Positions 48 to 10,571 of a DNA stretch of 14,070 bases are shown piece after piece; position 1 is the stretch's first letter; each line of letters starts with the position of its first letter. The DNA comes from a virus (taxonomy: Duplodnaviria > Heunggongvirae > Uroviricota > Caudoviricetes), in the IMG/VR virus record IMGVR_UViG_2648501165_000006; one strand, given 5' to 3'. Both the position numbers and the translations under genes were made by a program. The notes below the pieces were generated by a model, which saw nothing but the letters and a program-made list of their open reading frames with translations, was not told the DNA's origin and did not search any database.

Positions 48-842
48 TTGGCATCAACGCAGAGTTCAAAAGAGTACAAAAATGATCGCAGCAAGGCGAT
101 GAATTCTGCTGTCAGCAATATGGCGCAGTGGTTCCGTTGGGATCCGTCTGCGGATGACCAGACGCCGGAAGCAGCTAGATTCCGTAATGACTATCAGACG
201 CTGTATGACATTAACTACCGCGTTGCTGGTGGTAACGCTGACGTAGCGAAGCAAATGACCAACCAGCAGATAGCCCGCACCTGGAGTATCAGCGAGGTTA
301 ACGGAGAAGCGCAGTTTATGAAATATGCACCGGAGGCGCTTTATCAATATGGGCCGTCAGGCTGGCAGGCGGCGCAGTGGAAAGCTGAAAAAGAACGGCT
401 GATGTACGGTGAGCGCAAAGAGATTATAACAACCAGCCCGACGTTGCTTGGGATCACGTCAGGTAATGCTCCTGTAGTTGAGACAAAAACCCCTGAGAGT
501 CGTATTAATGGAGAATTATTCATAACCCCTGACGTGTTAACACCCCGTAATGGTGATTACGCCATTATGGTAAGAACTAAGGATGAAAATGGCATCGATC
601 GGGTCCAGCCGTTTTATAACAAACATGGGCGTCCTATGCGTTGGGAACCATCACTAGAAGATTGGGAACCCTATAAGAAAATGCAGCAGGAACGGGAGCA
701 GTACGAGCAGGAAGAAATTATGCGTGGACAGGCTATACGAAACTTCAAAGACAAGCATCGCGCTCTGGATGAGCAGTATCAGCGCCTGCATAACGAACGT
801 ATGGACAAATTTAAAGATTACTTTTCGTGGGGATCTAAATAA
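48..842 (+). CDS. Phage virion or ejection-associated protein, function unknown; 5' end possibly beyond the window
   Basis: The reading frame is open back to position 3 with no in-frame stop, and the first in-frame start is TTG at 48. The stop TAA (840-842) overlaps the ATG of the next gene (842-844), indicating translational coupling. The C-terminus is charged and coiled-coil-like. Confidence 0.5.
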   Translation: MASTQSSKEYKNDRSKAMNSAVSNMAQWFRWDPSADDQTPEAARFRNDYQTLYDINYRVAGGNADVAKQMTNQQIARTWSISEVNGEAQFMKYAPEALYQYGPSGWQAAQWKAEKERLMYGERKEIITTSPTLLGITSGNAPVVETKTPESRINGELFITPDVLTPRNGDYAIMVRTKDENGIDRVQPFYNKHGRPMRWEPSLEDWEPYKKMQQEREQYEQEEIMRGQAIRNFKDKHRALDEQYQRLHNERMDKFKDYFSWGSK

Positions 843-3800
843 TGCCAGTTTATGCACAAGCTGAAGATCTTAATAACGGACTGATCCCGTCAGGTAACGT
901 TTTGCCGGAACAAACTGGGTTTGATGTTGCCCTTCCGGAAGGGGCTAATCCTGAGCCATTGCCACCTGAGCCTTCCGTATGGGGGGCTGCAATGCGACAG
1001 AACAATATTCTGTCTGGTTTTTTCCGCCCAGCCAGACAGTTTGAACCGGTCGAGGGTTATAACCCATATGCTGATAAAAATGAGTTGCACGGTTATGAAT
1101 ACTGGGGGGCGAAATTTGCAGATTCCCGATCGCCAGAGGAAACGGCGTGGATTAAGCAGCAGATAGATGATGAAAATGAAGACAGACGTTTATTGTCTGA
1201 TGCTGGCGTAGTTGGAACCCTTGCCAGTATTGCTGCGGGAATGGATCCGGTTACTGTTGCGTCAATGTTTATTCCCGGTGCTCAAGGAGGGGCACTGGCG
1301 CGTATTGGCTCACAGATTGCGATTGGTGCTGCCGGTACAGCATTAAGCGAGGTTGTACTGAATAATCAGCAAATAACACGCTCATGGGGTGAAAGTGCCG
1401 CTCACGTTGCAGCGGGTGCGATGATGAGCGGCGTGTTTGCCAGTGCTGGTGTTGCGCTTTCGCCATCCGTCCGGGCTGCAGCCACACGTGAGGTTGCTGA
1501 TGCTCTTGATAATATGAGCATTACATCAGCGACTGACAGGGCTGCCGCTTCGCTTTCCGATGGTGGTAGTGTTGGTGCTATGAAAATTGATACAGCGGCT
1601 CTGGATGATTTAACCCCTGTTTCCGGTGGGTGGGTTGGAAAGGCTGCATGGAAAGCAGGGAGCTATCTTACTCCTTTGACAAGGTTAATGGAGTCTCCGT
1701 CCAAGACGGTGCGAAAAACAGCGCTGGAGTTAGCCGAAAATAATTTCACCCTTAAAGGAAATGAAAGGGGGATTGAAACACCGGTAGCTGTAGAAACCCG
1801 TACACGTGGATGGCAGCGTGAAGAAGCTGCTGTTGTTGTCGGAAATAAACAGGCATACGCAAAGTATAAAGCTGATGGTGGTGACATGAGTTTTGATTCA
1901 TTTCGTCAGCAGGTTGGGAATGCTATGCGAAGCGGTGATGTGCATGCTAATCCTGTTGTTCAGGAAACGGCGCAGGCGATGCGAACTGTATTAAATCGGG
2001 TGAAAGTTGAAATGCAAAAGCTTGGTTTATTGCCGCCAGATGAAGAACTGAAAGCATTAGGCCAGGCAAGCTATTTCCCACGCATATATAAAGTTGGAAA
2101 AATAATCAGTGAACGCGATAAATTTCGACGTATTTTGGTTGACTGGTGGTCGAGAGGAAATAAAACACTGGATCCTGAGGATGCTGAAATTGCAGCGGAT
2201 ATCGTAATTAATAAAATTACTGGTGCTAAGGTTCCACAGGATTTTGTCAGCGTATTTTCTGTAAAAGCCGCAGGTAGTACGAAAGAAAGAACATTAAATG
2301 TTTCTGATAGTCTTATCAGGGATTATCTTGAAAGTGATGTGAATTACGTGCTGCAACGTCATATCCGTGAAGCGGCAGCAGAAATTGAGTTGACGAGAAC
2401 ATTTGGCAAACGAACTATGACTGAGCGTCTGCAATTAATTGAGGACGAATATGACAGTCTGTTACGGGAAGTGCCTGAAAAAATAAAGGCGAAATATGAC
2501 GAAAGTGTGGCAAATCTGAAAGCACGTTATGAGAGCAATGGTGAAGTTGTTCCTCAGGGTAAACTCGATTCATTAATGCGAAAGTACGAAAAGGAATTAC
2601 GGAAAGAACAGTCCAGACTTTCAAAATCAAGAGCAAATGATCTCAGAGACATAACAGCATTACGCGATCGTCTTGTTGGTACATATGGTATGCCTGATGA
2701 TCCGTCTTCGTTTTTTGTTCGTGCTGGCGCTTTTCTGCGGGATGTGAACTTCACGACCAAACTCGGTGGAATGACAGTATCAGCTATTCCAGATCTGGCC
2801 AGAGGGGTTATGGTTAATGGTTTCCGTAACACCATGAAAGGCTATGCTTCTCAGATATCCCAATCACCGGCATTTAAGGCCAGCAAAGAAGAGATGTTGA
2901 AGATGGGGATTGGATTGGAAGCTGTACTACATTCACGTTCTCGTGCAATTGGTGATCTTGTTGACAGTTCTTCCAGGACAACAGCAGTCGAAGCAGGAAT
3001 GGAGCGAATTACTGATGCCTTCGGCAAGCTGACACTCATGGATCGATTTAATGACATAAACAAATCCATGAACGGAATGCTCACGTCAGACGGTATTTTG
3101 TCTGGTGCGTTTTCTGCACGTCGCATGGCAAAACTCGGTATCAACGACAATATGGCTGCGCGTATTCGCAGTGAGTTCGAGAAACATGGTGAGGTAATTG
3201 ATGGATGGCACATTGGTAACTTTGATAAATGGGACGATCAGTACGTTGCCGGAGTATTCCAGTCAGCGGTTCTGAAAGACGTTAATAACACTATCATCAC
3301 CCCCGGTATTGGTGACACACCTTTATGGGCGAGTACTCCAATGGGGCGAACGATATTTCAGTTTAAATCATTCACAACGGCTTCATACAACCGTGCGCTA
3401 CTTGGTGGGTTACAGGAAGGAACTGCGCAATTTTATTATGGCACTGTATTTCAGATTGCTCTTGGCTCACTGGTCTATGCGCTAAAAGAAGCATCGAAAG
3501 GGAAAAATGTTGACTGGTCACCAGAGAAGCTGGTGCTTGAGGGTATAGATAGATCCGGTATTCTTGGGCCATTGATGGAATATAACAACATGGCTGAAAA
3601 GGCTACTGGTGGTGCTGTTGGGCTGGGGGCTTTATTTGGCACTGGCACACAGTCTAGGTATGCCAGTCGTGGATTCGTAGGATCTCTATTCGGACCGTCA
3701 TTTGGTCTTGCGGATAGCATCATTGATGTGACCGCAGGAGTGTTGAATGGTGATGCCGGTGATCGTATTGTGCATAATGTCCGAACCCTGATACCAGGCA

Positions 3801-3856
3801 ATAACCTGTTCTGGATTGCGCCACTAATAAACCAGGTGGATCCGGTGATGCGGTGA
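842..3856 (+). CDS. Large (1004 aa) phage internal virion / DNA-ejection (core) protein candidate
   Basis: Long ORF with a Gly/Ala-rich hydrophobic stretch (GAQGGALARIGSQIAIGAAGTALSEV...AAGAMMSGVFASAGVAL) and an extended charged coiled-coil region. It sits upstream of the immunity region and tailspike, as ejection proteins do in P22-like and epsilon15-like podoviruses. Function is inferred from size, composition and position only. Confidence 0.55.
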   Translation: MPVYAQAEDLNNGLIPSGNVLPEQTGFDVALPEGANPEPLPPEPSVWGAAMRQNNILSGFFRPARQFEPVEGYNPYADKNELHGYEYWGAKFADSRSPEETAWIKQQIDDENEDRRLLSDAGVVGTLASIAAGMDPVTVASMFIPGAQGGALARIGSQIAIGAAGTALSEVVLNNQQITRSWGESAAHVAAGAMMSGVFASAGVALSPSVRAAATREVADALDNMSITSATDRAAASLSDGGSVGAMKIDTAALDDLTPVSGGWVGKAAWKAGSYLTPLTRLMESPSKTVRKTALELAENNFTLKGNERGIETPVAVETRTRGWQREEAAVVVGNKQAYAKYKADGGDMSFDSFRQQVGNAMRSGDVHANPVVQETAQAMRTVLNRVKVEMQKLGLLPPDEELKALGQASYFPRIYKVGKIISERDKFRRILVDWWSRGNKTLDPEDAEIAADIVINKITGAKVPQDFVSVFSVKAAGSTKERTLNVSDSLIRDYLESDVNYVLQRHIREAAAEIELTRTFGKRTMTERLQLIEDEYDSLLREVPEKIKAKYDESVANLKARYESNGEVVPQGKLDSLMRKYEKELRKEQSRLSKSRANDLRDITALRDRLVGTYGMPDDPSSFFVRAGAFLRDVNFTTKLGGMTVSAIPDLARGVMVNGFRNTMKGYASQISQSPAFKASKEEMLKMGIGLEAVLHSRSRAIGDLVDSSSRTTAVEAGMERITDAFGKLTLMDRFNDINKSMNGMLTSDGILSGAFSARRMAKLGINDNMAARIRSEFEKHGEVIDGWHIGNFDKWDDQYVAGVFQSAVLKDVNNTIITPGIGDTPLWASTPMGRTIFQFKSFTTASYNRALLGGLQEGTAQFYYGTVFQIALGSLVYALKEASKGKNVDWSPEKLVLEGIDRSGILGPLMEYNNMAEKATGGAVGLGALFGTGTQSRYASRGFVGSLFGPSFGLADSIIDVTAGVLNGDAGDRIVHNVRTLIPGNNLFWIAPLINQVDPVMR

Positions 3857-4521: not shown

Positions 4522-4953
4522 CTATTCAGGTATTTCAATTCCAAAACCATCTGCATCCCATGAGTTTTCACAGATGATGTAACCTAGTTCATTGAGCTTA
4601 TTAAATGTTTTTTCAAAGATGATCTGGTAATCATTATCTGCAAGTGATTCCAGTTCAAGGTCATTAAGGTTTATATAAAAACTTGTATGTCCAAGTGTTA
4701 TTTTCTTATTGATTTCATTAAAAGTTCTTTTGAAAATAATATTTGATATTTCATGCCGTGCATTGTTTGCAATAATTTTTGCTTCATAAGCAGAAATTAC
4801 GTCATCTTCATGAATATCTTTCAGAAAGCTGGTGTCAAGACGTTGTACTATTTCAGCGTTCATTGAGCGCTTATTGGCTTTTGCAGAAATTTCTATTTTT
4901 TCTTTTACTTCAACGGGAAGTCTGATCCTTAGTTGTGGATCTTCTCTGCTCAT
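4522..4953 (-). CDS. Arc/Mnt-family ribbon-helix-helix transcriptional regulator with a ~90-aa C-terminal extension
   Basis: The N-terminus MSREDPQLRIRLPVEVKEKIEISAKANKRSMNAEIVQRL matches the Mnt/Arc RHH pattern (basic beta-strand, then helices, with the ...RSMN.E... motif). The likely start is ATG at 4953 with a GGTGA ribosome-binding site; the ORF-track start at 4983 is TTG. The gene is AT-rich. Confidence 0.6.
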   Translation of the reverse strand: MSREDPQLRIRLPVEVKEKIEISAKANKRSMNAEIVQRLDTSFLKDIHEDDVISAYEAKIIANNARHEISNIIFKRTFNEINKKITLGHTSFYINLNDLELESLADNDYQIIFEKTFNKLNELGYIICENSWDADGFGIEIPE

Positions 4954-4998: not shown

Positions 4999-5059
4999 TC
5001 ACCGTGTGCTTGACATCAATGACGCACGGTGTGACAATTGTTTTGCCCCACGGTGGGGC
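4999..5059. promoter_or_regulatory. Divergent immI-like control region: sigma70-like promoter (TTGACA 5010-5015, 17-nt spacer, GACAAT 5033-5038) overlapped by repeated CACCGTG / CACGGTG operator-like half-sites
   Basis: CACCGTG at 5000-5006 and its reverse complement CACGGTG at 5025-5031 flank the -35 element. A third copy sits inside the near-palindrome GCCCCACGGTGGGGC at 5045-5059, just upstream of the AAGGAG ribosome-binding site (5061-5066) of the Arc-like gene. Confidence 0.4.
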
Positions 5060-5073
5060 TAAGGAGATATGAA

Positions 5074-5241
5074 ATGCAAAAAGCAAAAGAGATGTGTCAA
5101 CGACGAGTTCGTTTTCCGGACGATGTGAAGTTAGCTATTGAAAGAAATGGCGAAAAAGAATGCCGAAAGTTCAATACAGAGATTATCTATCAGCTGAGGA
5201 AAGTGTATGGACTCACTGGTGAGAAGAATAGCGTGGCATAA
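5074..5241 (+). CDS. Arc-like small ribbon-helix-helix repressor (55 aa)
   Basis: ATG at 5074 is preceded by AAGGAG at 7-nt spacing. The product MQKAKEMCQRRVRFPDDVKLAIERNGEKECRKFNTEIIYQLRKVYG has the size and RHH pattern of phage P22 Arc. The ORF-track start at 5038 lacks a ribosome-binding site. Confidence 0.6.
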   Translation: MQKAKEMCQRRVRFPDDVKLAIERNGEKECRKFNTEIIYQLRKVYGLTGEKNSVA

Positions 5242-5247
5242 AACAGC

Positions 5248-5280
5248 GAAGCCCAACGGTGGCCAGACCGTCAGGGCTTC
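5248..5280 (-). terminator. Hairpin between the Arc-like and antirepressor genes, terminator-like on the minus strand (candidate sar-type antisense RNA terminator)
   Basis: 7-bp stem GAAGCCC / GGGCTTC with an internally structured loop. On the minus strand the hairpin is followed by a T-rich tract (TGTTTTAT); on the plus strand it is not. Confidence 0.35.
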
Positions 5281-5313
5281 AGTATCGTAAAACTACGTAT
5301 AGGAATTAACGAC

Positions 5314-6140
5314 ATGACGAGTATAGCAACAGCGCTATCTACTATCAACGTGCCATTCCACGGCGCAGAACTTTATGTTGTCAATCACAACGGAGAACCG
5401 TACACCCCAATGAAACCTATCGTTGAAGGCATGGGTATGGATTGGGCTTCACAGTTTACGAAAATGAAGCAGCGGTTTAAAACCTGCATTGTGAAAATCA
5501 CAATGCAGCTTCCTGGGGATGAACAGCGCCGTGAGATTATTTGTTTGGCACTTCGCAAACTTGCTGGCTGGTTGCAAACCATCAGCCCTAACAAAGTCCG
5601 CCCTGAAATCCGCGACAAGGTAATCCAGTATCAGGAAGAGTGTGACGATGTTCTCTACGAGTACTGGACTAAAGGCCATGTGGTTAACCCACGCAAAGCT
5701 AAAAAGGCGTTGCCGGGTAAAATAACCACTGAACAGCAGGAAGCCATTAAACAACTCGTCATGAGTCGCGGTCAGTCTCTGCCAAAAGAAAAACAGGCTA
5801 AGGCGATGATCACCATGTGGTCGTCACTGAAATCTCATTTTGGCTGTTCGTACAAAGAAATTGATGAAGATCAATTCGCCGAAGCGTTGTCTCTTGTTGC
5901 TCGGGTTCCGCTTGAAGGGGAGCATCTCCCTGCTGGATCTGCATCAGAGAATGATGAAGTGGCAGTCAAGATGTTAGATGCGCTTCGTGAGGCAATTAAA
6001 ACACAGACAAAATGTTATGGTTATCCGCTGAAGCCCGGCTACCGCAGTCTGATTCATTCGCCGTCTGGTGTTCTCGGCCTGACGGAGAACNNNNNNNNNN
6101 CCACGCGGAGTACATCAACGACAAGGCAGGGTTCTTCTGA
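5314..6140 (+). CDS. Antirepressor (Ant-like N-terminal domain plus KilA-C-like C-terminal domain), interrupted by an assembly gap
   Basis: The N-terminus MTSIATALSTINVPFHGAELYVVNHNGEPYTPMKPIVEGMGMDWASQF is antirepressor-like. After the N run, the frame ...HAEYINDKAGFF-stop (ending at 6138-6140) matches the C-terminus of the minus-strand antirepressor 7124..7810. The ORF-track extension to 6315 is a frame artefact of the N10 placeholder. Confidence 0.6.
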
Positions 6141-6164
6141 CAGAACGGCGGCACAGGGATGTGC
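6028..6164 (+). repeat. Inverted repeat copy A (antirepressor C-terminal module plus ~25 bp of 3' UTR), gapped
   Basis: 6028-6090 and 6101-6164 are near-identical to the reverse complement of 7101..7359, for example CTGAAGCCCGGCTACCGCAG...GGCCTGACGGAGAAC and CACGCGGAGTACATCAACGACAAGGC. Confidence 0.8.
6091..6100. other. Assembly gap (10 N placeholder) inside a repeated antirepressor C-terminal module
   Basis: A literal run of ten n characters. By comparison with the paralogous copy at 7101..7359, the true missing length is probably ~120-130 bp. Confidence 0.95.
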
Positions 6165-6190
6165 AAAACGGAACTATCGTGACATGTCAC

Positions 6191-6215
6191 AGGCCGCTTT
6201 CGCGGCCTTGTTTTT
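6191..6215 (+). terminator. Rho-independent terminator downstream of the antirepressor gene
   Basis: Stem AGGCCGC (6191-6197), loop TTTC, stem GCGGCCT (6202-6208), then TGTTTTT. Confidence 0.6.
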
Positions 6216-6255
6216 AACGAATGCCACCGCCGCCCGGGCGGGAATCCGCAGACAC

Positions 6256-6277
6256 AAAAAAGCCCGCAACGCGGGCT
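6256..6277 (-). terminator. Rho-independent terminator immediately after the 181-aa minus-strand gene
   Basis: On the minus strand: stem AGCCCGC, loop GTT, stem GCGGGCT, followed by T6 (the plus-strand A-run at 6256-6261). The hairpin overlaps the stop codon at 6277-6279. Confidence 0.6.
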
Positions 6278-6822
6278 TATTCCTTCCATTTATCAGAAAA
6301 AAGCTCTTCTTCTAAAGGCATTGGTTCTGTTTTTGTTTTCTCAAAGAATTGATAACTGATAGTGATTGCTTCCTCTTTAAACTCTTCTTGCTCAGTTATG
6401 TTGTGGGCATCTGCGTCAACAAAAAACATAACCAGCGCATCACGATTGTGATTTACCGAATAAACTAAAAAGCAATCACTTGTTGGTATGCATTTTACTT
6501 GCACAGACGCTATATTTTTCCATGCATCCCAAGATGATTTTTTACCAGTGTGTTTTTTATCACTATCTTCTGGAATATAGTCTTGGTTATCGACATGAGT
6601 ATGCCTGACATTTAGTTTAAGCATTTCTGTCGGACGAGCAAATGCAGCATCTTTACCAAGAGATGGATGGTATCCCGTTTTCCAATACTGGGTAAAGGCA
6701 TCAGATACTTTCTTCAGCTCAAGATCAGATGCACAAAGGGCCGAGAAATTTTGCGTATGCAATACTCGACCCTTATATCTGACAATTTGATTTTTATCAT
6801 TCTGCGACGCAGACGAACTCAT
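6277..6822 (-). CDS. Hypothetical 181-aa protein, candidate toxin or abortive-infection effector (possible YafO-like motifs)
   Basis: ATG at 6822 is preceded by AAGGA. The motifs ...EMLKLNVRHTHV... and ...CFLVYSVNHNRDALVMFFVDA... resemble, from memory, conserved blocks of YafO-family mRNA-interferase toxins; this is unverified. The gene is flanked by its own terminator and lies between convergent antirepressor genes. Confidence 0.5.
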   Translation of the reverse strand: MSSSASQNDKNQIVRYKGRVLHTQNFSALCASDLELKKVSDAFTQYWKTGYHPSLGKDAAFARPTEMLKLNVRHTHVDNQDYIPEDSDKKHTGKKSSWDAWKNIASVQVKCIPTSDCFLVYSVNHNRDALVMFFVDADAHNITEQEEFKEEAITISYQFFEKTKTEPMPLEEELFSDKWKE

Positions 6823-6976
6823 AATTTTCCTTATTGTTACGAGAATCAAAGAAAGCTCGGGATACGCGACTTGCGTGATCTTTTGTCATAGTAACTTTTA
6901 CGTACTCTACGCTTCCATTGAAAGAACGTCTTGCGGCAGCTTGCGCTCTACGCATCTGCAATTTTTCGTTTCGCAT
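6797..6976 (-). CDS. Small 59-aa ORF upstream of and overlapping the 181-aa gene (candidate antitoxin or regulator)
   Basis: ATG at 6976 is preceded by GAGG at ~7-nt spacing. The N-terminus is Arg-rich (MRNEKLQMRRAQAAARR...). It overlaps the downstream gene start by 26 nt in a different frame. It is absent from the ORF track, which appears to omit ORFs of this size (shortest listed is 60 aa). Confidence 0.35.
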   Translation of the reverse strand: MRNEKLQMRRAQAAARRSFNGSVEYVKVTMTKDHASRVSRAFFDSRNNKENYEFVCVAE

Positions 6977-7100: not shown

Positions 7101-7359
7101 GCACATCCCTGTGCCGCCGCCCGTCAGAAGAACCCAGCCTTGTCGTTGATGTACTCCGCGTGAGTCTGGATATCACGCAGGCATTTGCTCACACCGACGA
7201 TGTAGCAGAACATGGTGGTCAGCTCCGCCGCCGCGCCCGATACATCGTGCCCGTCGTCCTGTAACTGGTTAAGCAGATTCATCAGCAGTGAGTTCTCCGT
7301 CAGGCCGAGAACACCAGACGGAGAATGAATCAGGCTGCGGTAGCCGGGCTTCAGTGGGG
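7101..7359 (-). repeat. Inverted repeat copy B (C-terminal module of the Bro-N antirepressor plus 3' UTR)
   Basis: The reverse complement matches copy A with a few mismatches. The repeat ends at GCACATCCCTGTGCCGCC (7101-7118). Confidence 0.8.
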
Positions 7360-7810
7360 CACTGTAGGTTTTGTTCTCTATCTTCATTGCCTGCATCACT
7401 GCTGATGCTGTGGCGTTGGCTACCTGGTCGGCAACCATCTTTATGCGTTCTTCCTGCGGGAGCGAGTTTTTAATGTAACTTCCGGTGCGGCGGATCTGAG
7501 GAAGAACCTCACCTGTAACCCATTTACGAAAGCGGTAGGGGATAGTGCCTGGTGTCACCGCATCGCGGCAGCGGAGGATCAGTGTGTAGAGGCCTGACTC
7601 GTTGATAATATTGGTTTCGCCTTGACGGCCTAAGTTAAATTTAGCCCTTTCATCATCATCAAGAGATTTTATTGACATAGTGGGGTTTGTCAGTTGAAGA
7701 GCTTTAATAACGTCTTTGGCAACAAACCAAGGATTTCCATCAATAACAATGGCTCGAATGGTTGCTTCTGATTCAAAATGAAAAACAGATGGGGTTACGT
7801 TAGCAGTCAT
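7124..7810 (-). CDS. Antirepressor with Bro-N-type N-terminal domain and KilA-C-like C-terminal domain
   Basis: From ATG at 7810 (ribosome-binding site AAGGTG) the N-terminus reads MTANVTPSVFHFESEATIRAIVIDGNPWFVAKDVIKALQL, the Bro-N signature. The C-terminal ~85 aa are near-identical to the gapped antirepressor at 5314..6140. The ORF-track extension to 7963 (MCKAHLFYGG...) is judged non-coding. Confidence 0.65.
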   Translation of the reverse strand: MTANVTPSVFHFESEATIRAIVIDGNPWFVAKDVIKALQLTNPTMSIKSLDDDERAKFNLGRQGETNIINESGLYTLILRCRDAVTPGTIPYRFRKWVTGEVLPQIRRTGSYIKNSLPQEERIKMVADQVANATASAVMQAMKIENKTYSAPLKPGYRSLIHSPSGVLGLTENSLLMNLLNQLQDDGHDVSGAAAELTTMFCYIVGVSKCLRDIQTHAEYINDKAGFF

Positions 7811-7963
7811 AGTGATCACCTTTGTAGTTAGGTTAATCACCACTACCGACGCCAATCGGTTGGTGGTGAACTGTGCAGGGTTGGCGTAACCGGCTACAAA
7901 GGACCCGGCGCACCTTTCGGTGCCCCCACACAGCCCACCATAGAATAGGTGCGCTTTACACAT

Positions 7964-7983
7964 AAAAAAAACCGCTTATGCGG
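7964..7983 (-). terminator. Weak terminator-like element (short GC stem followed by T8 on the minus strand)
   Basis: Plus strand reads AAAAAAAA then CCGC-TTAT-GCGG. On the minus strand the 4-bp GC stem is followed by eight T. The stem is short, so the call is weak. Confidence 0.25.
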
Positions 7984-8123
7984 CATATGTGCCTCTGTAG
8001 TAACTCGGGACGCCAATCCCGGCACTGGATTTTGCCAGTGCCCGATTACTATGGCACAAGAGGAGTGCGATGTAAATTTACCTCAAAGGTAAATATAAGC
8101 ACTCCACTTGGTAATTGCAAACC

Positions 8124-8576: not shown

Positions 8577-10571
8577 ATGACGGTCTCAACCGAAGTTGAC
8601 CACAACGAATATACAGGTAACGGTGTTACAACTACGTTCCCTTATACCTTTAGGATTTTCCAGAAATCTGATCTGGTGGTGCAGGTGATTGACCTTGACG
8701 AGAATATCACTGTGCTGGCTCTTGATACTGATTACGCAGTCACTGGTGCGGGAGGCTATAGAGGCGGTAATATAATACTGTCGAAGGCATTGGCCAACGG
8801 TTATCAGATCTCTATATCACGAGAGCTCCCGGTTACTCAGGAAACAGATCTGCGTAATCAGGGTAAATTCTTTGCAGAGGTGCATGAGGATGCGTTTGAT
8901 AAGCTAACGATGCTGATTCAACAATGTCGTAGCTTGTTTCGTCTTGCACTTTGCAAGCCATCAAGTATTGCAAACTGGTACGACGCTTTAAATAACAGGA
9001 TTAGAAATCTTAAAGATCCAGAAAGCCCTCAGGATGCAGTAACTTTAAGTTATCTTGAAGGGTATATAGAAGGTGGTGATAGTACTTTGCGTCCAGATAT
9101 TACAAGAACTGGAGCTGTAGGGAATAATATACAGCAAGCCATAAACTTATCTATAGCCGGTCAAACTGTAATTACGATGAAAGATGATGAAATTGTATCT
9201 TCATTGTTAAATGAATATGGTGTTGAAATTGAGCAACGCAGGGGGCGTGTATTTAATACAGAAGGTGTTCAACTAACAACGTATTCTGACCCTCGTTCCC
9301 GTTTTGTAACTGGTGACCAATATCTTAATTATGTTATTAGCAAGATGATAAAAGCAGATGGCGTGGATAAATCACAGAAAACATATATTTTGTGGTCTGG
9401 TGACTCCACGATTGTTGGTGTTAACTCTGAATTATGGCCACCAGCAACTATTGCTGATTTTTATGCAAAGAGGTATGGAATTATTGATGTAAAAAATACA
9501 TCGTTAGGTCATTCAGGTAAAACTCTATACGAATGGGGTAATTGGTATATTGATCAGGAATGGTCTGTTTTTTCTGCTGCTGATTTGATTGTTTTACGAT
9601 GGGGAATTAACGATCCATATTATGGTTATACATTGGATCAAGTAAAAGACGCATTAGATAGAGGCCTTTCCAAGTTACGAAATAACAAATCAGTTTCCCA
9701 GCAATCAATTATTATCATGTCCCCAAACTCAACATCAGACACACCAAACGGACGTGATGAAAAATGGTATGAACAGTTAACAGCCGTACTTAGAGCCAAA
9801 GCAAAACAATATAAGTGTATGTTTTTTGATACTTACGGTATGTGGCAGGATTCGCGAGGATCTGCTGGTAACTGGCTTGATGACCCTTATGGCGATGGCA
9901 GGGGAATACACCCAAACTCAACATTTAGCGCACAGATACATAAATTATTATTTGAATATATTTATGGACCGTGTGCTGTTATAAATGGGAGTAGCAACCT
10001 TTTTTCTAACAATGGTTCTTCCATACAATTCATCAATAGCTCATATCCGCCAAATACTTTTCACATGGGGACTTCATGGTGGAGAACAAACCCTGATGAT
10101 GCTTCTTGGCCTCTTGATGGTGTTATTCAGGTTGATAGATTTGTTGACGGAATAGTAGTACAAAAAAATTATGGTTATTCTTCAGATAATGCTCGCGTTT
10201 GCTTAATGAGGATTGGAAGGATTAGTGAGAATACATGGAGTACATGGCGAGGTAATCAGTATGATATGAGTGGCATATTGCAAAATGGTTGGTCTGTAGG
10301 TGAGGCAAGAAGTGGAACATATCAGAAATCAGCCGAGGGCGTTGTTACTTTATCTGCTGTTTTAACAGGTGGAAATACATCTGTTGGCACGGTTATTATG
10401 GTATTGCCAGAAGGGTTTAGACCAAAGAATGATATTTCTTATATTCCATCAGGTACTGATTCATCGGTTGCCCTCATTAATATACTTTCAAACGGTAAAG
10501 TTACAATTCAGAGCTATCCGTCAGGAACTGTTCTTGTAATTAATACGACATTCCCTTCATTAGTTAATTAG
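8577..10571 (+). CDS. Tailspike / tail fibre protein with a conserved N-terminal particle-binding domain, a central SGNH/GDSL esterase module and a C-terminal beta-rich domain
   Basis: ATG at 8577 with a GGAG ribosome-binding site. The N-terminal ~120 aa (MTVSTEVDHNEYTGNGVTTTFPYTF...DLRNQGKFFAEVHEDAFDKLTMLIQQ) fit the podovirus tail-fibre adaptor pattern. SGNH blocks are present: GDS at codons 275-277 (nt 9399-9407), GIND (LRWGINDP), and DGRGIHP with the His at nt 9909-9911. The 3' two-thirds is visibly more AT-rich than the 5' end. Confidence 0.75.
   Translation: MTVSTEVDHNEYTGNGVTTTFPYTFRIFQKSDLVVQVIDLDENITVLALDTDYAVTGAGGYRGGNIILSKALANGYQISISRELPVTQETDLRNQGKFFAEVHEDAFDKLTMLIQQCRSLFRLALCKPSSIANWYDALNNRIRNLKDPESPQDAVTLSYLEGYIEGGDSTLRPDITRTGAVGNNIQQAINLSIAGQTVITMKDDEIVSSLLNEYGVEIEQRRGRVFNTEGVQLTTYSDPRSRFVTGDQYLNYVISKMIKADGVDKSQKTYILWSGDSTIVGVNSELWPPATIADFYAKRYGIIDVKNTSLGHSGKTLYEWGNWYIDQEWSVFSAADLIVLRWGINDPYYGYTLDQVKDALDRGLSKLRNNKSVSQQSIIIMSPNSTSDTPNGRDEKWYEQLTAVLRAKAKQYKCMFFDTYGMWQDSRGSAGNWLDDPYGDGRGIHPNSTFSAQIHKLLFEYIYGPCAVINGSSNLFSNNGSSIQFINSSYPPNTFHMGTSWWRTNPDDASWPLDGVIQVDRFVDGIVVQKNYGYSSDNARVCLMRIGRISENTWSTWRGNQYDMSGILQNGWSVGEARSGTYQKSAEGVVTLSAVLTGGNTSVGTVIMVLPEGFRPKNDISYIPSGTDSSVALINILSNGKVTIQSYPSGTVLVINTTFPSLVN

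Follow-up and report, generated by a model that had tools for sequence, protein, structure and literature searches.

The window analysed here, a 14,070-nucleotide stretch of virus DNA (IMG/VR record IMGVR_UViG_2648501165_000006), comes from a P22-like podophage or prophage of Escherichia coli; locally, it is ~97% identical to Escherichia phage TL-2011b and 99.7% identical to a prophage of E. coli 13E0780. The region of interest contains a divergently oriented gene for an Mnt-like repressor, a Pant-like promoter, a gene for an Arc-like repressor and then the antirepressor gene ant, which is the arrangement of an immI-type module, as in P22. The genes and signals of this module are as follows.

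4953..4522, minus strand: mnt-like divergent repressor gene, 143 aa, with an N-terminal Arc/ribbon-helix-helix domain (Pfam Arc, PF03869, E 1.1e-14, residues 2-46)
5010..5038, plus strand: Pant-like promoter TTGACA-17-(TG)GACAAT, identified by promoter scan in the position of Pant in P22; it would drive arc-ant and converge with the promoter Psar described below
5047..5059, no strand: palindrome CCCCAC-G-GTGGGG (CCCCACGGTGGGG) just downstream of Pant, a putative Mnt operator like GGTCCACGGTGGACC in P22
5074..5241, plus strand: gene for an arc-like ribbon-helix-helix repressor, 55 aa, 33% identical to P22 Arc (pairwise E 4e-5)
5301..5305, plus strand: AGGAA, the Shine-Dalgarno sequence of ant, located 8 nt 5' of the ATG; it is complementary to the loop of the sar stem-loop I described below and proposed to be the site masked by sar
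5314..6315, plus strand: antirepressor gene ant, 333 aa (Pfam P22_AR_N, PF10547, E 1.2e-44), the presumed target of sar
6191..6208, plus strand: terminator-like hairpin (pattern scan) inside the 3' end of ant (stop codon 6313-6315), which closes the arc-ant operon
6278..6260, minus strand: facing terminator that would halt leftward transcripts before ant

The Ant protein of the window is 39% identical to P22 Ant over 217 aa (E 8e-41). The 55-aa product of the upstream gene shows no match to Pfam at E 0.01, and its designation as Arc-like comes from the weak pairwise similarity to P22 Arc and from the name 'Arc-like repressor' given in RefSeq to its counterpart in TL-2011b. The segment between the two genes, together with the beginning of ant, contains on the opposite strand a set of features that resemble those of the P22 sar antisense RNA.

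5313..5241, minus strand: predicted sar antisense RNA, ~70-73 nt, with the 5' end at G 5313 and the 3' end in the U-run 5243-5240
5313..5284, minus strand: sar stem-loop I, a 5-bp stem GUCGU/ACGAU with a 20-nt loop that contains UUCCU (RNA folds)
5281..5247, minus strand: sar stem-loop II, the terminator hairpin, 14 bp with one bulged U and the 6-nt loop CUGGCC (RNA fold, repeat search, pattern scan)
5245..5240, minus strand: U-tract UGUUUU after the hairpin, overlapping the arc stop codon at 5239-5241 (sequence and terminator scan)
5320..5328, minus strand: extended -10 box of Psar, TGcTATACT, within ant codons 3-5 (AGT ATA GCA; promoter scan)
5343..5348, minus strand: -35 box of Psar, TTGATA (5/6), with a 17-nt spacer, overlapping the T-I-N codons of ant (promoter scan)

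An earlier reading made from the letters of the window alone (hereinafter, the sequence-only reading) noted at 5248..5280 a 7-bp GC-rich stem with a structured loop, followed by a T-rich tract on the minus strand only, and both observations hold. A repeat search recovers perfectly complementary 7-nt arms, GAAGCCC at 5248-5254 and GGGCTTC at 5274-5280, separated by 19 nt, and RNA folding of the minus strand adds 6 bp and a closing U-G pair within these 19 nt, so that the 'structured loop' is actually the upper part of the 14-bp bulged hairpin. Past the hairpin, the minus strand reads GCUGUUUUAU, with a U-run at 5243..5240, whereas the plus strand downstream of the hairpin (AGTATCGTAAAAC / AGUAUCGUAAAAC) contains no T-run. 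A pattern scan also reports the site as a minus-strand terminator-like element. Thus, the site combines a G+C-rich hairpin with a U-run on the transcribed strand, as expected of an intrinsic (Rho-independent) terminator, with a short U-tract. The weak points of this terminator are the bulge and the presence of just four consecutive U. The 3' end of P22 sar was reportedly placed by Liao et al. in 1987 at the tail AACUUUACG, which is a poorer U-tract than the UGUUUU of the window. The 73-nt minus-strand RNA as a whole folds with -23.7 kcal/mol (z = -2.77), a value attained by 1 of 200 shuffled sequences.

A minus-strand promoter, which the sequence-only reading had suggested should be sought in 5320..5370, is found by the promoter scan at 5348..5320, inside ant codons 3-12. 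This sequence, TTGATA-17-TGcTATACT, matches the consensus in 10 of 12 positions and has the TG of an extended -10 box, compared with 8 of 12 for P22 Psar, and transcription from it is predicted to start at about G 5313, one base 5' of the ant ATG. Hence, at the level of motifs, the putative RNA has its own sigma-70 promoter on the opposite strand within the first codons of ant, as is characteristic of sar. Promoter-like matches in this region are not enriched overall (4 found vs 3.9 expected). In P22, Psar is activated by convergent transcription from Pant.

The promoter can be followed through the relatives of this locus that are described below. Each of the 29 distinct 5' ends of ant in sar-positive loci has a TGn-TAnnnT box on the minus strand, and 26 of them have it in the register +6..+11. 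The -10 hexamer varies (TATACT, TAAACT, TAAATT, TAAAAT, TACACT and others) because the overlapped codon switches among Ile, Leu and Val. Nevertheless, each of the 26 in-register ends has A at the wobble position that faces the first T of the hexamer (codons ATA, TTA and GTA), and the invariance of this base despite the exchange of the three amino acids points to a constraint that comes from the antisense -10 box and not from the encoded protein. For the -35 box of the window, which overlaps the conserved T-I-N codons, conservation is inseparable from the constraint on the protein.

An Rfam scan of the whole window at gathering thresholds identifies the sar family (RF00262) on the minus strand at 5312..5245, with a score of 45.2 bits (gathering threshold 43), an E-value of 1.3e-6 and an alignment to model positions 1-68 of 68. 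The margin above the threshold is ~2 bits. In the equivalent place, the same model yields 97.8 bits for P22, 84.6 bits for CUS-3 and 44.8 bits for TL-2011b, and a covariance model built in this analysis matches the window at 5313..5239. The predicted RNA consists of two stem-loops, the second of which is an intrinsic terminator (predicted length 73 nt vs the known 68-69 nt); it is antisense to the leader of a P22-type antirepressor gene, covers the Shine-Dalgarno sequence, has its 5' end next to the start codon and, as in P22, is complementary to the entire arc-ant intercistronic region. The UUCCU in the loop of stem-loop I is the complement of the ant Shine-Dalgarno sequence. Stem I is short in the window, with 5 bp, one of them G-U.

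The geometry is identical to that in the P22 record, where sar occupies 15021..15090, its promoter 15097..15125, and the ant ATG is at 15091. Alignment of the window with P22 reveals conservation of the lower terminator stem, of the CATGAnnAGTATAGCAA block that combines the ant start with the opposite-strand -10 box, and of the A-rich flanks. The sequence-only reading had proposed an RNA analogous to sar but "sequence-unrelated" to it, and this part of the proposal was wrong: the window scores above the Rfam sar threshold, and its lower terminator stem, -10 box and ant start align base for base with those of P22. Taken together, the Rfam match, the alignment and the identical placement indicate orthology rather than analogy. 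Thus, the region is very probably an orthologue of P22 sar, a cis-encoded antisense RNA that represses ant, and, judging by sequence, the locus belongs to the known sar family as a somewhat divergent, unannotated member. The remainder of the sequence-only reading, namely, that the hairpin would end a leftward, sar-like RNA that begins near the ant start or ribosome-binding site, is supported: the predicted RNA is ~70 nt long, begins at the ant start codon and spans the ribosome-binding site of ant, like sar in P22. Homology in sequence and structure, the promoter and terminator motifs with their geometry, conservation, covariation and strand bias are established at this locus; that sar is made here, pairs with the leader and represses translation, we infer from P22, by homology and identical geometry.

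Relatives of the locus were collected by homology of the Ant N-terminal domain, i.e., blindly with respect to the RNA. The 30 loci from one genome per species, in Yersinia, Erwinia, Rosenbergiella, Izhakiella, Mixta, Raoultella, Providencia, Photorhabdus, Xenorhabdus and other genera, and 80 loci from viral contigs gave ~50 distinct upstream regions. These regions contain a minus-strand two-hairpin fold with a U-rich tail, with the exception of a few distant ones (L008, L019, L030, L033 and L035), and loop I of the relatives carries the anti-Shine-Dalgarno motif CUCC/UUCC. Both hairpins are retained upstream of ant homologues in 40 distinct relatives across Enterobacterales; the sequence-only reading was to be abandoned if the hairpin proved not to be conserved in related prophages, and it is conserved. 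With Rfam sar at E <= 1, full-length minus-strand matches directly upstream of ant are detected in 13 of 20 representative loci, and only 3 of these 13 score above the threshold, which implies that the curated family covers just the part of sar diversity that is near to P22. In the loci without sar upstream of ant (L008, L019, L021, L025, L030, L033, L034 and L035), no known RNA was found at gathering score in the sar position.

In plain MAFFT alignments, the register of stem I was inconsistent and RNAalifold recovered the terminator only; therefore, a covariance model with a hand-written structure was built and the sequences were realigned. This model matched all 31 chosen distinct loci in the same place and on the same strand. 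At E <= 1, the search also drew weak plus-strand matches to the palindromic hairpin (16-21 bits), and the final cut-off was E <= 0.09. In the 31-locus alignment, 91.9% of the cells pair, compared with 81.8% after shuffling, and the covariation score is 0.388 vs 0.214, with none of 500 shuffles reaching the observed value in either case; when the partners are slid by 1-3 columns, pairing falls to 31-54%. Double-sided (compensatory) changes are present in 12 of the 20 pairs (stem I, 5 of 7; terminator, 7 of 13), counts that lean toward the model given that the alignment was fitted to a hand-written structure and the sequences are mutually related.

The gene upstream of sar is variable. In most of the relatives it encodes a ribbon-helix-helix protein, with very different sequences, and in some its product is unrelated (a zinc-finger-like protein, as in CUS-3, or a membrane protein, among others); because the upstream gene is not Arc-like in some relatives, the immI module is typical of sar but does not strictly define it. 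The stop codon of the upstream gene always lies 64-76 nt before the ant ATG. sar moves with the 5' end of ant and not with arc. The stem-loop I of the window is found with both the window-type and the P22-type terminator, and the same is the case for the stem-loop I of L038, so that the two hairpins recombine independently of each other.

Several alternatives to an antisense RNA orthologous to sar have to be considered. The hairpin could have a role in the sense arc-ant mRNA alone, be it in processing, in stabilising the arc mRNA 3' end or in modulating ant translation, with no antisense RNA involved. The complementary structure must also form in the target, and the sense strand of the window folds into a strong hairpin as well (-22.5 kcal/mol, z = -3.89), nearly as stable as the antisense fold, so that the strand is assigned from the U-run, the promoter and the comparison of relatives and not from the folding energy in this sequence. 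In each of the 40 distinct spacers, however, the sense fold is the less stable of the two (mean -19.4 vs -29.0 kcal/mol for the antisense fold), and the antisense fold includes, on average, 4.3 G-U pairs, compared with 1.2 in the sense fold. Given that G-U pairs are A-C mismatches on the opposite strand, this asymmetry implies selection on the minus-strand RNA. Along with the U-run on the minus strand alone, the minus-strand TGn-TAnnnT box maintained through amino acid change, and the Rfam match on the minus strand, these observations make a role in the sense mRNA alone very improbable.

The borderline Rfam score and the bulge in the hairpin relative to P22 might also be taken as signs that the locus is a decayed or silent remnant, homologous to sar, whose RNA has ceased to be made or to regulate ant. 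Such decay appears quite unlikely because Psar is closer to the consensus than its P22 counterpart, the arc, ant and mnt open reading frames are intact, and the variant is recurrent: the window version of sar is found in many E. coli genomes and viral contigs, and at least 80% of the segment composed of arc, sar and the 5' end of ant is present in 36 complete E. coli genomes and a part of it in 249. Finally, there is a likeness between the upper part of the hairpin (CCCAACGGTGGCC, 5251-5263) and the palindrome CCCCACGGTGGGG at 5047-5059, with 12 identical bases in TL-2011b (GCCCCACGGTGG), so this part of the hairpin could be imagined to function as DNA, as a second site for the Mnt-like repressor. 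Only one half-site matches, however, and chance predicts 1.55 matches per window to a 9-mer with up to one mismatch; the same hairpin occurs without the operator (L010) and the operator occurs with different hairpins (P22 and L014); and stem I, the promoter and the covariation would be left unexplained. An operator-like sequence was therefore rejected as the main explanation of the hairpin, in view of the inconsistent co-occurrence across lineages and the near-chance expectation, and a function of this element as DNA is highly improbable. The likeness between CCCAACGGTGGCC and CCCCACGGTGGGG is an unexplained resemblance.

The P22 sar RNA is 68/69 nt long and blocks the ribosome-binding site of ant through pairing with the ant mRNA between the two genes, arc and ant (PMC12197685, PMC7968456); it is required for the proper control of antirepressor synthesis and for the establishment of lysogeny (PMC12197685, PMC7968456, PMC2629481, PMC11016777), and sar reads are present in RNA-seq data from P22-infected cells (PMC13397905). 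If the locus of the window is a sar orthologue that functions in the same manner, leftward transcription would proceed from the sigma-70 promoter Psar within the first 12 codons of ant, convergent with Pant, starting at ~5313 and terminating at the hairpin and U-run at 5281..5240, beside the arc stop codon. Loop I would display the ant anti-Shine-Dalgarno sequence, and pairing of sar with the leader of the arc-ant mRNA would occlude the ant ribosome-binding site, block the initiation of translation and limit the synthesis of the antirepressor. The targets would be the transcripts from Pant and probably also read-through transcripts of the late operon (the "ant moron" within the late operon), so that sar would add a third level to the control exerted by the Arc-like and Mnt-like repressors.

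The main value of these observations lies in annotation because sar is missing from the records of TL-2011b and CUS-3 and from the RefSeq annotations of E. coli prophages, and ~250 complete E. coli genomes carry DNA related to this locus. No new mechanism is implied. The survey of the family adds covariation support for both sar helices, which is of modest value, and the overlap with ant provides a clean example of an antisense promoter that constrains codon choice in the overlapped gene. Furthermore, the Rfam sar model misses most of the members outside Salmonella and E. coli. A more far-reaching reading, in which sar is a broad, modular family that moves with the 5' ends of P22_AR_N genes across Enterobacterales (Yersinia, Erwinia, Mixta, Providencia, Photorhabdus and Xenorhabdus), mostly with sub-threshold Rfam scores, and in which independently exchanged stem-loops act as specificity types and the sar of the window is possibly constitutive, is tentative and, on balance, rather unlikely. 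Should it be correct, the specificity types of sar and the ant leader could decide whether antirepressors are cross-repressed among co-resident or superinfecting phages, and the near-consensus Psar could make the sar of the window constitutive in the lysogen; even so, such a family would be a modest extension of the known biology.

Among other small phage RNAs, the OOP RNA of lambdoid phages is likewise a short cis-antisense RNA that has its own promoter and intrinsic terminator and modulates a lysis-lysogeny regulator. However, OOP overlaps the 3' end of cII and has no sequence relation to the sar of the window; it acts through RNase III cleavage and not through masking of a ribosome-binding site. 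The c4 RNA of P1 and P7 (RF01695) is more similar in its effect, being also a small phage RNA that masks the ribosome-binding site region of an antirepressor operon, but it is encoded upstream of its target with both on one strand, whereas sar of the window is convergent with its target, fully complementary to it, and has its own promoter and terminator. The c4 RNA arises by processing of the operon transcript, and its pairing involves short loop sequences. A c4 identity for 5241-5320 was rejected because the C4 model has no match there and the RNA is convergent with its target. The C4 model does match the window at 7945..7859, an RNA of a second type; the second antirepressor module of this phage, with a Bro-N domain and under c4/isrK control, lies 1.5 kb away.

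Within the sar family, TL-2011b is 98.5% identical to the window over 5230-5360 and likewise scores just above the Rfam sar threshold. CUS-3 has stem-loop I and the ant start in common with the window but differs in its P22-type terminator and its non-Arc upstream gene. In the records of both phages, sar is unannotated. Compared with P22, the window differs in the sequences of stem-loop I and of the upper stem and loop of the terminator, where pairing is kept via compensatory changes, and its terminator, unlike that of P22, has a bulged U. The -35 box also differs, with TTGATA in the window being closer to the consensus than GTGTTA (3/6) in P22; the stretch is different because ant of the window lacks two codons that are present in P22. 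Otherwise, the two loci are alike in the placement of the promoter, the RNA start, the terminator and the arc stop codon. In both, sar is encoded opposite ant with its 5' end abutting the ATG and with TGcTATACT in ant codons 3-5, and consists of two stem-loops with the anti-Shine-Dalgarno sequence in loop I, the lower terminator stem GAAGCCC/GGGCUUC and the 3' end at the arc stop codon; and in both, the neighbours are an Mnt-like repressor, Pant, an Arc-like repressor and a P22_AR_N antirepressor.

The window encodes a second small-RNA-controlled antirepressor module of the P1/Gifsy type (7124-8076, minus strand), located 1.5 kb away from the sar/ant module. Its components follow one another on the minus strand in this order:

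8076..8048, minus strand: promoter-like site TTTACA-17-CATAGT (sequence motif)
8041..7965, minus strand: isrK-like RNA (Rfam, 74.2 bits) that has its own terminator
7945..7859, minus strand: C4 antisense RNA (Rfam, 79.5 bits)
7810 (ATG) to 7124, minus strand: ORF with a Bro-N domain, downstream of the C4 RNA

The loop of the C4 RNA, CCUUUGUAG, is a perfect complement of the segment 7827..7819, CUACAAAGG, and this segment overlaps the Shine-Dalgarno region belonging to the Bro-N-domain ORF. The E. coli phage TL-2011b likewise possesses the pair of isrK-like and C4 RNAs.

Four other genes of the window deserve mention:

842-3856, plus strand: 1004-aa ORF at the position that the injection (ejection) protein genes occupy in P22
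4522-4953, minus strand: Mnt-like repressor, 143 aa, with the Arc/RHH domain limited to residues 2-46
6277-6849, minus strand: YafO-like toxin ORF (Pfam YafO_toxin, E 9e-6)
8577-10571, plus strand: candidate tail fibre or tailspike protein of 664 aa, with a weak match to the T7 tail-fibre N-terminal domain and a GDSL/SGNH domain

No Pfam match was found for the 1004-aa ORF, the counterpart of which in TL-2011b is annotated as a hypothetical protein. The YafO-like toxin ORF is sandwiched between the sar/ant and Bro-N antirepressor modules, and two terminator-like hairpins, at 6191-6208 (plus strand) and 6278..6260 (minus strand), face each other; in TL-2011b, a YafO family toxin is annotated, and the small ORF upstream of it may encode an antitoxin. 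In the 664-aa protein, the weak match to the T7 tail-fibre N-terminal domain is combined with a lipase-acylhydrolase domain of the GDSL/SGNH type (E 7e-15); this domain architecture suggests a receptor-binding protein with deacetylating or esterase activity, not an endorhamnosidase of the P22 type.

The Mnt-like repressor is considerably longer than P22 Mnt (143 vs 83 aa), no Pfam match was found for its C-terminal part (about 95 aa), and a shorter ORF (342 nt) is annotated at this position in TL-2011b. Immediately 3' of Pant, the predicted promoter of arc and ant, lies the palindrome CCCCAC-G-GTGGGG (5047-5059), which is similar to GGTCCACGGTGGACC, the Mnt operator of P22. The Pant -35 box is flanked on both sides by an inverted repeat, CACCGTG (5001-5007) and CACGGTG (5027-5033), which may be the operator of the Arc-like repressor. 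Comparable palindromes are present 5' of arc in locus L007 of Erwinia and locus L014 of Mixta. In the sar terminator, the upper stem CCCAACGGTGGCC (5251-5263; also 6019-6033 in locus L001) resembles the operator-like palindrome as well, and in TL-2011b the two share 12 identical nucleotides (GCCCCACGGTGG). The co-occurrence of the two is inconsistent from lineage to lineage; the resemblance could be coincidental, or reflect a half-operator or the footprint of a recombination event.

Among the relatives, sar is a mosaic (CUS-3, L038, L042 and L007). In CUS-3 (L002, 2479-2546) and L042, stem-loop I of the window type is combined with a terminator of the P22 type, and in L007, stem-loop I of the L038 type with a terminator of the window type. 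The sole annotation of the CUS-3 sar region is 'bsq2 boundary sequence', and the gene 5' of sar in this phage is not arc, yet sar scores 84.6 bits. In L023 (Photorhabdus cinerea), a sok antitoxin RNA of the hok/sok system (120-265; Rfam, 98.7 bits) precedes the sar/ant module at a distance of about 0.9 kb.

Some more distant antirepressor genes of the P22_AR_N family lack sar (L019, L021, L025, L033 and L034, from Xenorhabdus, Providencia, Symbiopectobacterium and Serratia). Upstream of these genes, on the same strand, there is another conserved structured sequence, for which no Rfam family was detected at threshold in any of the five loci. L021, L025 and L034 share the sequence GAGCC...GGCAAAGGTTCATT, which is similar to P22F, a leader RNA reported from RNA-seq of P22 (PMC13397905); L019 and L033 carry a separate sequence, with the flanks GAGCCTGAGAAG...CAGCAGGCTC.
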